A stretch of DNA of 4,771 nucleotides from a virus (lineage: Duplodnaviria; Heunggongvirae; Uroviricota; Caudoviricetes): the IMG/VR virus record IMGVR_UViG_2778261502_000006. The stretch is one strand, 5' to 3'. Shown here one piece after another: positions 1,942-4,771 of the stretch. Position 1 is the stretch's first letter, and each line of letters starts with the position of its first letter. The notes beneath the pieces are model-generated. The model searched no databases, had not been told where the DNA came from, and worked only from the letters and a program-made list of their open reading frames with translations. The translations under genes and the position numbers were made by a program.

Positions 1942-2166
1942 ATGGATAGTAAAGAACCAAAGATTTCAGCCGGCGGTATGTCGAACGATGAACTGCTTGC
2001 CTGGATGAAAAATAAAACTAAAGCGGTTGAGGAACTCAAATCCGCTTTAGCTCATAAGGAATTTCTGGAAGAGCAGCTTCAGATTAATGCCGCGGAGATT
2101 GAAAGACTTACTCCACAAGCATGTATGAATATTCTTTTGAGTGATCAGGATTCCATTCCCCATTGA
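1942..2166 (+). CDS. Hypothetical small protein, 74 aa, predicted helical / coiled-coil (track ORF begins at 1900).
   Basis: ATG 1942 is preceded by GGAGGG (1933-1938). Product MDSKEPKISAGGMSNDELLAWMKNKTKAVEELKSALAHKEFLEEQLQINAAEIERL... is charged and helical. Its last 59 nt overlap the 3' end of the convergent 175-aa gene, so one of the two may be non-coding there. Confidence 0.3.
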   Translation: MDSKEPKISAGGMSNDELLAWMKNKTKAVEELKSALAHKEFLEEQLQINAAEIERLTPQACMNILLSDQDSIPH

Positions 2167-2635
2167 TGAAGTCATCAAAGGAAGATTCCCAAACATTTGC
2201 ATGAATTTTATCTAAAAAGCCCCTATATGACTGTGGAAGTTTTTCCAAAACAAGGTGGTGCTGAACGGCAATGATGACATCTTCGAGATCCATCTTTCTT
2301 ATTTGCTCGCCAGGCCAGCTGTAAGTCTTATTTAGCAAGTGGATGATTGCAGATTTTCCCTTGAGAGGGCTGAAAATGGTTCCATGCTCCTGACGGTGGA
2401 TGGCGAGCATGACATCTAGCGTAGTAAGAAGGATGGCTCTGTTTTTTACTTTATGTAGCTCATCTTGAGAAACAGCTCCCATCTGAGGGATGTCTCTTAC
2501 TGAATGAATGGTCGCTATATGCGCCTTGAAGATTGCTGAATAGAAAGCGGTGCTCATTATTTTATCCTTCTTGGCTGTGTAGGAACTCCAAGATACCACC
2601 GAGCCTGATGTGGTGAAAAGACAGGCACACAACAT
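2108..2635 (-). CDS. Hypothetical accessory protein, 175 aa (149 aa if started at ATG 2555-2557); no family recognised.
   Basis: Minus-strand ORF, opposite to the cI-int strand. ATG 2633-2635 is preceded by AAGGAG with a 9-nt spacer; internal ATG 2555-2557 is preceded by AAGGA with a 7-nt spacer. No transmembrane segment or motif I recognise. It sits between the immunity and integration modules, where lambdoid phages carry exclusion genes. Confidence 0.55.
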   Translation of the reverse strand: MLCACLFTTSGSVVSWSSYTAKKDKIMSTAFYSAIFKAHIATIHSVRDIPQMGAVSQDELHKVKNRAILLTTLDVMLAIHRQEHGTIFSPLKGKSAIIHLLNKTYSWPGEQIRKMDLEDVIIAVQHHLVLEKLPQSYRGFLDKIHANVWESSFDDFINGEWNPDHSKEYSYMLVE

Positions 2636-2703
2636 GAAAGCGCACTCCTTTACTTACCAGTTATGGGTGACAGGTGTGAAACAGGTGGAGTGCGCTTCCA
2701 GTT

Positions 2704-2780
<77 letters not shown>

Positions 2781-2832
2781 GAATCACGTAGTTCTCGTGA
2801 TCCAAGGAAGTAAGAAAGCTGTGTGGAGTCTT

Positions 2833-2878
2833 GGCGGTACCAGTACCAACCTTTGAAGTCCCTGGTACCGCCCTTTTT
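2833..2878 (+). terminator. Rho-independent terminator downstream of the tRNA.
   Basis: Perfect 11-bp inverted repeat GGCGGTACCAG (2833-2843) / CTGGTACCGCC (2862-2872) with an 18-nt loop, followed by CTTTTT (2873-2878). The long loop is atypical. Confidence 0.55.
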
Positions 2879-2963
2879 ACTCAACTGAAAGCGCGTTCTG
2901 TCCCTTGTCATTAAGTGCCAGTTCGTTAAATCCAAAACCAGCGGAACGCGCTTTCAATTGAGT
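2879..2963. repeat. Long inverted repeat: 20-bp arms with one mismatch, 45-bp spacer.
   Basis: Arm 2879-2898 (ACTCAACTGAAAGCGCGTTC) pairs with 2944-2963 (GAACGCGCTTTCAATTGAGT); the single mismatch is C2885 against T2957. It lies immediately after the terminator T-run and is not followed by a T-run itself. Confidence 0.6.
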
Positions 2964-3124
2964 GGAGAAACTAACCGGCGATTGCAGTCGCCCGTTTCAC
3001 TAAGTGCCTCTTCATGGGGCATTTACTGAAACGAAACCCAAACTTTTATTCGCCTTTTGGCGAGGGATTCGTGCAACCAAAATTCAGCGCCGTGCAGGGC
3101 GCATATAACACGGAGAAACTAACC

Positions 3125-3289
3125 ATGACGACCACACAGAACGTCACTGAGTTACAACCACGTATGACCAGAGAGCAACTGATCGATGCAGCTCGTAAAG
3201 CGGCCCCTCTTCTTCCGGTTGCTTACCGCGGGATCATGACAGAACTGGCTACGCCGACTGAAAGCCGATGTAGCATGGTGGAAATCTGA
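3125..3289 (+). CDS. Hypothetical small protein, 54 aa (track ORF 3014..3289 has an unsupported N-terminal extension).
   Basis: ATG 3125 is preceded by GGAG (3112-3115) with a 9-nt spacer. Product MTTTQNVTELQPRMTREQLIDAARKAAPLLPVAYRGIMTELATPTESRCSMVEI. Its 3' end overlaps a second open frame (from 3240). Confidence 0.4.
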   Translation: MTTTQNVTELQPRMTREQLIDAARKAAPLLPVAYRGIMTELATPTESRCSMVEI

Positions 3290-3311
3290 AGCTGAGTACT
3301 GTAAGGCGCGA

Positions 3312-3500
3312 GTGTTCGAACTGGCAAACGAAATTGCTGAACTAAGAAGCATGGTGATTCGTGTACCAATGCCGGTAATGGTGCCAGTAGAGATACTTCA
3401 TCAGCTAAATGGGAAGGGATCGAAAGAATATCCATTATGTCGCAATTGCAACGATGGAACCCGTCACGGGTGTTCATCGTGTGCTTACAGAATGAAGTAA
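3312..3500 (+). CDS. Hypothetical small Cys4 (zinc-ribbon-like) protein, 62 aa from GTG 3312 (49 aa from ATG 3351).
   Basis: The frame is open from 3240. GTG 3312 is preceded by AAGG (3303-3306). C-terminus CRNCNDGTRHGCSSCAYR gives C-x2-C-x7-C-x2-C. It is followed by hairpin AACCGG-GTGCAG-CCGGTT (3499-3516), just upstream of the xis SD. Confidence 0.4.
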   Translation: MFELANEIAELRSMVIRVPMPVMVPVEILHQLNGKGSKEYPLCRNCNDGTRHGCSSCAYRMK

Positions 3501-3533: not shown

Positions 3534-3761
3534 ATGAGCGGACAAATCCAACGTTTTCTTACTCCTGATGACCTCTATCAATTAACTGGTTATCGTCGAC
3601 CTTCCCTACAGTGTAAGGCTCTGAGGGATAGTGGAGTTTTTTTTATCCCACGTAAGGACGGCAGACCTGGAACTACATGGGATCATGTATCAAACCCGGT
3701 TGGCCTTAAGTTGATAGTGAGCAATCCAGAGGAAGAAGAACCAAACTTTAAGGATATGTAA
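3534..3761 (+). CDS. xis: Excisionase (lambda Xis-like), 75 aa.
   Basis: ATG 3534 is preceded by GGAGA (3522-3526) with a 7-nt spacer. Stop TAA 3759-3761 overlaps the int ATG (TAATG), as in lambda xis-int. Similarity to lambda Xis is by remembered pattern (RRPRSL...PP.KDGR against RRPSLQ...IPRKDGRP). Confidence 0.7.
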   Translation: MSGQIQRFLTPDDLYQLTGYRRPSLQCKALRDSGVFFIPRKDGRPGTTWDHVSNPVGLKLIVSNPEEEEPNFKDM

Positions 3762-4771
3762 TGTCTAGAGCTCGCAAAAACCCTGATGATAACTGGATGC
3801 CTCCCCGCGTTCGCCGGGGAAAATCTGCTTATGAGTTTCGTACCACAGATGGTCGTACCATCAGGTTGTGCAATCCTGAGCTAACAAAATCGCAGGTATG
3901 GGCAGCTTACGAAAACTTCATAAACGATTTAAAGGTTGGTACGAACTTCAACGCACTTTGTGAAGAGTTCTTTAATTCCGGTGATTTCCACGAGTTAGCA
4001 ACTGAAACACGTAAAGACTACAGAAAATACGGTTCAAAGGTAAATGTTGTCTTCGGGAAAATGAAGCCGGATAACATCAAGCCAGAGCACATCAGAAAAT
4101 ACATGGATAAACGAGGTGTTAAGAGCAGAGTTCAGGCAAACCGCGAGAAAGCATTTATGTCCAGGGTGTTTCGGTGGGCATACGAACGAGGAAAGGTGAA
4201 GATGAATCCTTGCCAGGGCGTTAAGCAATTTAAAGAGCAGGCTCGAACCCGTTATATTAGCGATAGAGAATATGATGCACTTTATAGCGTAGCTTCTGTT
4301 CCAGTAAAAGTTGCAATGGAATTGGCATATCTATGTTGCGCCCGCCAGGGAGACATTCTTGACCTCAAAAAGAGTCAAATATTGAGCGAAGGAATTTTAA
4401 TTCAGCAGAGTAAAACCGCAGTTAGCCAGATCAAGGCCTGGACAAAACGTCTGGAGGATGCCGTTAATCTTGCTGACAGCATTCCTCTTAATAGCGGGAT
4501 GGTAAGTATTTTTGTCATCCACCAGCCATCAGGTCTGCGATACACACGCGATGCTTTTAATGCGCAATGGATGAAGACTAAAAAAATTGCTGCTGAAAAA
4601 TATCCAGACCTCGATTTCCAGTTCACTTTCCATGATCTAAAAGCCAAAGGAATTTCTGATCTTGAAGGTACGCTTAGTGAGAAGCAGGAAATTTCAGGTC
4701 ATAAAAACGCCTCGCAAACAGCGAGATATAACCGAAGAATTTCAGTTGTTCCGGTCGTCGGGGGGCAGTAA
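3761..4771 (+). CDS. int: Tyrosine recombinase / lambda-family phage integrase, 336 aa.
   Basis: Full ORF with stop TAA 4769-4771; AAGGA SD 6 nt upstream. Arm-binding-like basic N-terminus. Catalytic-domain blocks align with lambda Int: LAMELAYLCCARQGDIL (box I Arg), IQQSKTAV (Lys), FTFHDLKAKG (box II His), GHKNASQTARYNRR (His and nucleophile Tyr). Confidence 0.95.
   Translation: MSRARKNPDDNWMPPRVRRGKSAYEFRTTDGRTIRLCNPELTKSQVWAAYENFINDLKVGTNFNALCEEFFNSGDFHELATETRKDYRKYGSKVNVVFGKMKPDNIKPEHIRKYMDKRGVKSRVQANREKAFMSRVFRWAYERGKVKMNPCQGVKQFKEQARTRYISDREYDALYSVASVPVKVAMELAYLCCARQGDILDLKKSQILSEGILIQQSKTAVSQIKAWTKRLEDAVNLADSIPLNSGMVSIFVIHQPSGLRYTRDAFNAQWMKTKKIAAEKYPDLDFQFTFHDLKAKGISDLEGTLSEKQEISGHKNASQTARYNRRISVVPVVGGQ

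Follow-up and report, generated by a model that had tools for sequence, protein, structure and literature searches.

A conserved hairpin at the long inverted repeat of a prophage early-left leader and its likely relation to dicF-type RNA processing

A densely structured stretch of DNA follows a tRNA gene in a lambdoid prophage, and the question raised by this locus is what the long inverted repeat in it is for. The window analysed here is a 4,771-nt stretch of DNA (record IMGVR_UViG_2778261502_000006), and all coordinates are window positions unless a genome is named. The original prediction had placed a tRNA trailer hairpin, a terminator and an inverted repeat one after the other in a stretch with no credible ORF. 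By repeat search, sequence reading and folding all three structures were recovered (2783-2801, 2833-2878 and 2879-2963), and the only ORFs are mechanical ones that overlap the tRNA. Absent from that prediction were a paralogous hairpin upstream of the tRNA, the continuation of the structured stretch to 3124, and the likeness of the terminator to DicF.

The structured stretch and its prophage context

The window covers the segment from the immunity region to the integrase gene in a defective, e14/mEp390-type lambdoid prophage. On the plus strand it carries a LexA-like cI repressor gene (1027-1710; Peptidase_S24 plus HTH), a DUF4224 excisionase-like ORF (3534-3761) and a tyrosine integrase gene (3761-4771), and on the minus strand a YdaS/Cro-like gene (664-921). 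The records closest to 2600-3130 are E. coli chromosomal prophages (98.9% identity), and E. coli PCP07014 and GDSC2BY4G carry near-identical regions; phage mEp390 is approximately 77% identical. The early-right side (1-704) is truncated, with a YmfL/cII-like ORF ending after ~38-62 aa where relatives have roughly 155-185 aa, which makes the prophage a defective one. This ORF is followed by an unrelated minus-strand ORF (1-318) for which a Pfam search gave no match. No N gene could be recognised in the window or in related phages, nor was an N-like protein seen in the window.

Promoter scanning and sequence reading gave a candidate pL on the plus strand, 3' of the cI terminator (1816-1845; TTGCAA, 18-nt spacer, TATAGT). 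It is overlapped by an operator-like palindrome, CTACTTAAAGTAG, another copy of which is found between the cro-like and cI genes, and the leader 3' of the candidate pL is homologous to the pL leader of phage Flotzy. The inverted repeat therefore sits in an untranslated early-left leader, the first ORF of which begins at 3125. Relative to the Flotzy leader, the window contains an insertion of ~670 bp (1925-2595) with two small ORFs, one of 74 aa (plus strand, 1942-2166) and a convergent one of 150 aa (minus strand, 2108-2560), neither of which had a match in a Pfam search. Relatives carry sieB, a member of the ECs1072 family or a BRCT-domain protein on the minus strand at this position, which is a hot spot for moron insertion.

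The arms of the inverted repeat (2879-2898 and 2944-2963) are 20 nt long, 95% complementary with one C-A mismatch, and 45 nt apart. In 40 dinucleotide shuffles of 2001-3500, searched with at most one mismatch and a spacer of 3-100 nt, the longest inverted repeat was 13 nt, which bears out the earlier claim that a 20-bp repeat with one mismatch and a 45-nt spacer is far beyond chance. Folded as RNA the repeat extends to 11+16 pairs between 2874-2901 and 2941-2968 (-37.7 kcal/mol, z = -5.5). This structure, termed hairpin B (plus strand, 2874-2968), was recovered by repeat search, folding and a family model. It has a helix of ~27 bp with one mismatch and the apical motif GUUCGUUAAAUC, and is a predicted RNase III substrate. 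Rfam searches of the whole window and of the sub-region returned no family over the repeat, but only the tRNA and a sub-threshold DicF match.

The minus strand of hairpin B folds about equally well (-38.9 vs -37.7 kcal/mol), and the conserved A-C mismatch of the sense strand becomes a G-U pair if read antisense; therefore thermodynamics leaves the strand of hairpin B undecided. Covariance model R1, in the training alignment of which the hairpin is included, scores it at 71 bits sense and 46 bits antisense. On the plus strand the whole of 2781-3124 folds far better than its shuffles (z = -7.6). As hairpin B lies downstream of an intrinsic terminator, it would be transcribed only on read-through or from a separate promoter, and a promoter scan of 2500-3300 found none. 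A candidate promoter inside the repeat (TTGTCA, 16-nt spacer, TAAATC) was rejected for its poor -10 element and the negative scan. An intrinsic terminator formed by the repeat itself was likewise rejected, the 3' arm being followed by GGAGAAACUAACC on the plus strand and by AAAAAGGGCGG on the minus strand, with no U tract.

The terminator preceding the repeat consists of a perfect 11-bp stem (2833-2843 with 2862-2872), an 18-nt loop and then CCC and UUUUU (2874-2878). It was missed by a consensus terminator scan only because loops were limited to 3-8 nt. Together with a 5' single-stranded part, GCUGUGUGGAGUCUU, this terminator hairpin and its U tract make up a DicF-like candidate small RNA (plus strand, 2815-2878). 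The only Rfam match in 2780-3130 is to DicF (RF00039; 2820-2873) at 14.6 bits (E = 1.3), far below the gathering cut-off of 48 bits, and it appears only in the small search space and is absent from the whole-window search; so 2833-2878 may be a terminator only. Relatives at the same relative position have graded DicF scores of 76.7, 58.9, 28.5 (K-12 e14) and 22.7 bits, and among them the 5' part of the DicF-like RNA is conserved while the hairpin top is variable.

DicF and the window RNA share the terminator core UUGGCGGUAYCAG...CCGCCCUUUUU, ~15-20 single-stranded bases 5' of it and a position between two long hairpins, so that an intrinsic terminator with a U tract stands at the dicF position. 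They differ in their 5' region, which is GCUGUGUGGAGUCUU in the window and UUUCUGGUGACGUUU in DicF, so any targets of the window RNA would differ as well. DicF acts by base pairing on ftsZ, manX, xylR and pykA. The e14 prophage of K-12 carries a window-type DicF-like variant, GCUGUGUGUAGUCUUGGCGGUACCAG...CCGCCCUUUUU, inside the annotated ymfH region (L136, 2706-2759; 28.5 bits, below the cut-off). This element, which overlaps the ymfH ORF, may be an unannotated K-12 small RNA.

Upstream of these structures lies hairpin A (plus strand, 2625-2710; -38.4 kcal/mol, z = -4.6), the paralog of the inverted repeat, with an R1 score of 90 bits as a member of the training set. It is ~70% identical to hairpin B, and the differences in the stem are compensatory changes. 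Its 3' arm extends into the first bases of a tRNA-Arg gene (anticodon UCU; plus strand, 2704-2780), which was identified by ARAGORN and by Rfam (tRNA, 66.5 bits). The tRNA 3' trailer hairpin (plus strand, 2783-2801; AUCACG/CGUGAU, 6 bp, 7-nt loop) is not significant alone, a perfect 6-bp hairpin being found in 20% of shuffles of the stretch. It is probably real nevertheless, because the same stem recurs with different loops after tRNA-Arg in most of 18 sequence variants.

Hairpin B is followed on the plus strand by a Shine-Dalgarno-like sequence, GGAGAAACUAACC (2964-2976), with no start codon after it, and then by the rest of a structured 5' leader (2977-3124) with hairpins at 2977-2992, 2993-3033, 3049-3062 and 3087-3102. 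The Shine-Dalgarno-like sequence is one copy of an exact 13-nt direct repeat, GGAGAAACTAACC, the other copy of which (3112-3124) serves the first early-left ORF (ATG at 3125) as its ribosome-binding site. A Shine-Dalgarno-like copy is conserved after hairpins at the B position in many loci, and in the window the extended stem of hairpin B pairs the U tract (2874-2878) with the GGAG-containing 2964-2968. The hairpins at 2977-2992 (loop UUGCAG) and 3087-3102 (loop GUGCAG) have 5-bp G+C-rich stems and near-identical 6-nt loops. In relatives these stems covary and the loops are fixed, which suggests a recognised RNA motif. The interval 3016-3117 is conserved in 408 E. coli genomes as a yfdQ-yfdR-type intergenic region. 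A coding frame over 2975-3125 was considered and rejected, as ECONIH4 has an in-frame stop 15 nt upstream of the ATG and relatives show indels.

A hairpin family in prophage early-left leaders

A search pattern was derived from the arms shared by hairpins A and B and scanned over viral contigs. The element was found in more than 100 contigs from Enterobacteriaceae prophages, and about a dozen of the matches were unrelated chance occurrences. The family consensus runs ACACAAC, a bulged A, UGAAAGCGCAYUCC, a variable apical part, GGAGUGCGCUUCCA and GUUGUG. Hairpin A is a canonical member, and further canonical copies occur in Kosakonia, Kluyvera, Enterobacter, Citrobacter, Raoultella, Buttiauxella, Shigella and Escherichia ruysiae. 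No Rfam model matched the family, and no description of it was found in the accessible literature, with key older papers outside that coverage.

In a second scan, which was anchored on a leader motif and left the hairpin sequence unconstrained, more distant variants were retrieved. These keep a long helix with the outer CACAAC/GUUGUG pairs, the bulge and the fixed mismatch two pairs further in, and their inner arms are entirely different yet complementary. Conservation of sequence in the outer helix exceeds the known needs of RNase III. In an arms-only alignment of 40 distinct sequences, 88.4% of cells pair as compared with 33-49% with slid partners, the percentage paired being inflated because the sequences had been pre-selected for at least 15 basal pairs. 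Both sides change in 11 of the 20 pairs, and the covariation score of 0.320 (0.126 in shuffles) was reached by none of 500 shuffles. A double-stranded helix of at least 20 bp, about two turns, is kept by compensatory change in hairpin B and in the family. Looking for compensatory changes in related prophages had been proposed with the original prediction, and the answer is positive, orthologous copies of hairpin B in mEp390 and strain C3728 having such changes.

The position of the hairpin is as constant as its fold. A cI-type repressor was detectable in 72 loci, and in each of them the hairpin shares the cI strand and follows the gene at a distance of 92-2300 nt; in the window the distances from cI are 928 nt for hairpin A and 1179 nt for hairpin B. 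At the shortest distances only a few bases lie between a consensus-like promoter and the start of the hairpin. In the complete phages mEp390 and Flotzy all copies are in the left operon, and covariance-model scores are always higher on the pL-sense strand.

The motif on which the second scan was anchored, termed L2 (plus strand, 2596-2628; ACCACCGAGCCTGATGTGGTGAAAAGACAGGC), stands directly 5' of hairpin A. Of 5426 complete E. coli genomes, 2743 contain it; in K-12 it is found in both the e14 and the Qin prophage, and in some phages it is near the 5' end of pL transcripts. The 30-nt motif reads ACCACC(G/T)CGCCTGAYGTGGTTAAAAGCAGGC and recurs in many other loci, for example in L137 (2503-2535). 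What follows it differs from prophage to prophage and may be the family hairpin, a terminator or coding genes. L2 may act in the leader RNA or mark a junction of mosaic recombination. A leader peptide across L2 (MNDRMIRKWLTTAPDVVKSRPKQ in Flotzy) was rejected, the start codon being missing in other phages.

Some family members are considerably longer, at 130-138 nt (L043, 1926-2063; L062, 1242-1379; L145, 7938-8072). Their conserved basal stem closes off one or two stem-loops that contain a T-loop-like GGTTCGATTCC and may be tRNA-like inserts.

Relation to the Qin dicBF operon and proposed processing

The dicBF operon of the Qin prophage (ydfABC-dicF-dicB) occupies the same position as the structured stretch, in the early-left operon of a lambdoid prophage and downstream of the repressor gene. 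We know of no description of DicF maturation by RNase III outside Qin. The RNase III processing sites of Qin dicBF were reportedly characterised by Faubladier, Cam and Bouche in 1990 and by Ragunathan et al. in a preprint of 2023. Long imperfect hairpins in early polycistronic RNA serve as RNase III sites in the lambda N leader, in sib and in the T7 early region, where they punctuate the transcript and change the stability or translation of neighbouring RNAs. These sites have no sequence relation to the window hairpins, and they flank mRNAs, in contrast to the tRNA and small RNA of the window.

In Qin, L2 is followed by a hairpin that R1 scores at 48.5 bits (E = 9e-15), the model having been built without the Qin sequence, and this hairpin does not fit the search pattern. 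By this score the window hairpins are homologous to the hairpin upstream of Qin dicF, and in the alignment the Qin hairpin and hairpin B have the apical motif GUCGUUAAAU in common. The Qin hairpin is situated 125-210 nt upstream of dicF, with bona fide dicF starting 125 nt past its 3' end. In MG1655 the hairpin spans 1,649,172-1,649,257, and its 3' arm occupies 1,649,238-1,649,257. The spacer of 125 nt in Qin corresponds in position to the tRNA-Arg of the window.

The placement of the Qin RNase III cuts on these hairpins relies on RNA sizes (190, 72 and 53 nt). According to a preprint, a 190-nt DicF species has a 5' end made by RNase III and the same 3' end as 53-nt DicF, and loss of RNase III destabilises the upstream RNA in Qin (bioRxiv 10.1101/2023.04.14.536235). 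The 5' end of 53-nt DicF is made by RNase E according to published work, and the 3' end of 72-nt DicF is described in two papers as an RNase III product on the full-length RNA (PMC9438474, PMC5069750). Simple size arithmetic puts the 5' end of the 190-nt species at 1,649,245 in MG1655, 137 nt upstream of the DicF 5' end and within the 3' arm of the family hairpin. The 3' end of 72-nt DicF would be at 1,649,453, in the 5' arm of a 21-bp stem (1,649,442-1,649,462 with 1,649,574-1,649,594). These sizes would thus place the two cuts of RNase III in Qin within the family hairpin and within the stem downstream of dicF.

A long stem stands directly after a DicF-type terminator in Qin and in the window alike. 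In Qin the 21-bp stem begins 8 nt after the DicF terminator stem, and in the window hairpin B begins in the U tract of the terminator. The Qin stem is of other sequence and its helix closes a structure of ~110 nt resembling Rfam STnc100, whereas the window has at this position a second copy of the upstream hairpin. Given the same layout and a repeat that starts in the U tract, the inverted repeat occupies the position that the second RNase III stem has in Qin. Since the repeat is a conserved hairpin related to the Qin RNase III hairpin, the most likely reading of the stretch is an ordinary site of RNA processing in a prophage early operon rather than an element of a novel type.

By analogy with Qin, we consider it probable that 2590-3124 is the untranslated dicF-type processing region in the pL operon of a defective e14/mEp390-like prophage and that RNase III cuts hairpins A and B. 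The region would be the counterpart of the Qin ydfC-dicF-dicB interval. A pL transcript starting near 1850 would contain, in this order, L2, hairpin A, tRNA-Arg(UCU), the trailer hairpin, the DicF-like RNA with its terminator, hairpin B and the structured leader. Host RNase III would cut the paralogous helices of A and B (~20-27 bp). The cut in A is predicted from Qin homology at 2694/2695, where it would separate the upstream RNA and leave a tRNA leader of ~9 nt on which RNase P would act. Hairpin B would be cut in read-through transcripts, at predicted positions 2893/2894 and 2950/2951 if the usual 2-nt stagger applies. The former would give an alternative 3' end of the DicF-like RNA ~20 nt past the terminator stem (19 nt in Qin), and the latter a new 5' end and hence a trimmed leader of the downstream mRNA. 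In this way RNase III would release the tRNA and the DicF-like RNA from pL transcripts. The exact cut positions are to be taken as putative, each being built on the likewise deduced placement of the Qin cuts.

A stable RNA or RNase III substrate processed together with the tRNA had been among the functions first suggested. Of the three first suggested it is the one favoured by the compensatory changes in related prophages and by the homology to the Qin hairpin; the link to the tRNA proved to be secondary, because the majority of the family lacks a neighbouring tRNA and in mEp390 both hairpins persist beside a mere tRNA stub. The tRNA-Arg is present in only about 25 of ~110 family loci, and with only about a quarter of loci carrying it the tRNA was rejected as the cause of the hairpins. 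It is a later insertion between hairpin A and the DicF-like hairpin and not the scaffold's reason for being. In mEp390 (L003, 3086-3116, corresponding to window 2760-2780), hairpin A is followed by a tRNA-Arg stub of the last ~20 nt, AACCGTAGTAGCTGTACCA, then by the DicF-like terminator and hairpin B. This stub looks like the outcome of tRNA loss through deletion.

A more ambitious version of the processing model, which we regard as rather unlikely, takes the family as a dedicated modular punctuation element. The conserved CACAAC/GUUGUG base, the bulged A and the fixed mismatch would be recognised by a specific factor or would position precise cuts, and arrays of two to three hairpins would release interchangeable non-coding cargo from one repressor-controlled transcript, with the hairpins serving as cargo-exchange junctions between phages. 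Cargo would then include DicF-like small RNAs, tRNA-Arg and the T-loop-bearing inserts.

DicF was among the first bacterial small RNAs to become known, and it bears on cell division, metabolism and EHEC virulence. If the processing model holds, the RNase III hairpin is a conserved, covarying RNA family of Enterobacteriaceae prophages without an Rfam model, ranging over Escherichia, Shigella, Klebsiella, Kosakonia, Kluyvera, Citrobacter and Raoultella. It would mark loci with divergent DicF-like small RNAs, sometimes with a rare-codon tRNA-Arg, and could thus be used in genomes as a simple marker of prophage small-RNA variants that have new target specificities, the one in K-12 e14 included; exact cleavage-site predictions would follow as well. 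As regards the window, the outcome chiefly clarifies what was seen, the densely structured stretch being then an ordinary processing region of a defective prophage.

Other explanations for the repeat

The hairpins might act as structural RNA without RNase III, either as a barrier to 3' exonucleases for the tRNA or small RNA or as a 5' stem-loop that stabilises or controls the downstream mRNA, a possible route being sequestration of GGAGAAA by the U tract. The pairing of 2874-2878 with the GGAG-containing 2964-2968 in extended hairpin B would suit such a role, as would the fact that in some phages only a few bases separate the hairpin from the predicted pL start, where 5' stabilisers are classically found. 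The upstream RNA of Qin is reported to be destabilised on RNase III loss, so stability effects are involved. However, an RNase III-dependent end has been mapped in Qin at the position of the homologous hairpin, and RNase III readily accepts a near-perfect helix of 27 bp, so that its escaping cleavage in vivo would be surprising. As a replacement for RNase III cleavage we consider this explanation unlikely; it supplements the processing model more than it replaces it.

Cis-acting antitermination is quite improbable. The hairpin would here be an RNA of the HK022 put type, or a nut-like site for a protein, that lets pL transcription read through leader terminators. It is always in the pL leader downstream of cI, sometimes directly after the promoter; terminators do occur within the leader, for example 2833-2878; related phages have no recognisable N gene; and the geometry of outer helix, bulge and mismatch is conserved beyond the needs of simple double-stranded RNA. 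The put RNAs of HK022 and HK639 are likewise structured RNAs in the pL leader of lambdoid phages without an N gene. They are, however, two-stem RNAs of ~70 nt and of other sequence, as opposed to a single long hairpin, and HK022 additionally has putR in the right operon, whereas the pR operon of the complete phages contains no second copy of the hairpin. Comparison with HK022 pL-putL and the annotated putL-like RNA of HK639 gave no likeness, R1 with filters off remaining below 12 bits in both genomes. A put site should also lie upstream of the terminators it suppresses, but the U tract of the preceding terminator is where hairpin B begins, and the Flotzy-type copies, too, are directly downstream of a terminator. 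A lambda-type nut site was rejected, there being neither a boxA nor a boxB consensus, no right-operon copy in mEp390 or Flotzy and no N-like protein. The HK639 record annotates, besides its putL-like RNA, an 'M3-like RNA' after the cII-like gene (L135, 37910-37969).

Action at the DNA level is likewise quite improbable. A protein-binding palindrome pair and a relic recombination site had both been suggested for the repeat, and the corresponding possibilities are a pair of half-sites for a dimeric protein, a cruciform or a junction for cassette swapping by recombination. Hairpins A and B are indeed direct repeats flanking the tRNA and DicF-like cassette, L2 is followed by many unrelated modules across prophages as at a mosaic junction, and the window leader has its 670-bp insertion relative to Flotzy. 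Against this, the arms change wholesale with pairing kept (GAAAGCGCAC with GUGCGCUUCC as compared with GAGAGCAUUG with CAGUGCUCUC), which fits base pairing and not a fixed protein-recognition sequence. The arms are ~40 to 110 nt apart, some of the sense-strand pairs are G-U, and the orientation to cI does not vary; both earlier suggestions are thereby disfavoured. Use as a junction could moreover follow from conservation rather than cause it. A cI operator within the repeat was rejected, as the operator-like CTACTTAWRGTAG, found near cro/cI and near 1828, is absent from it.

The chance of a fortuitous palindrome or a dispersed REP/MITE-type repeat is practically nil, for only the palindromic shape speaks for it, shuffles never exceeded 13 nt against the 20 nt observed, and the element occurs in one or two copies per prophage, at a median of one place per genome and always in a prophage immunity region.
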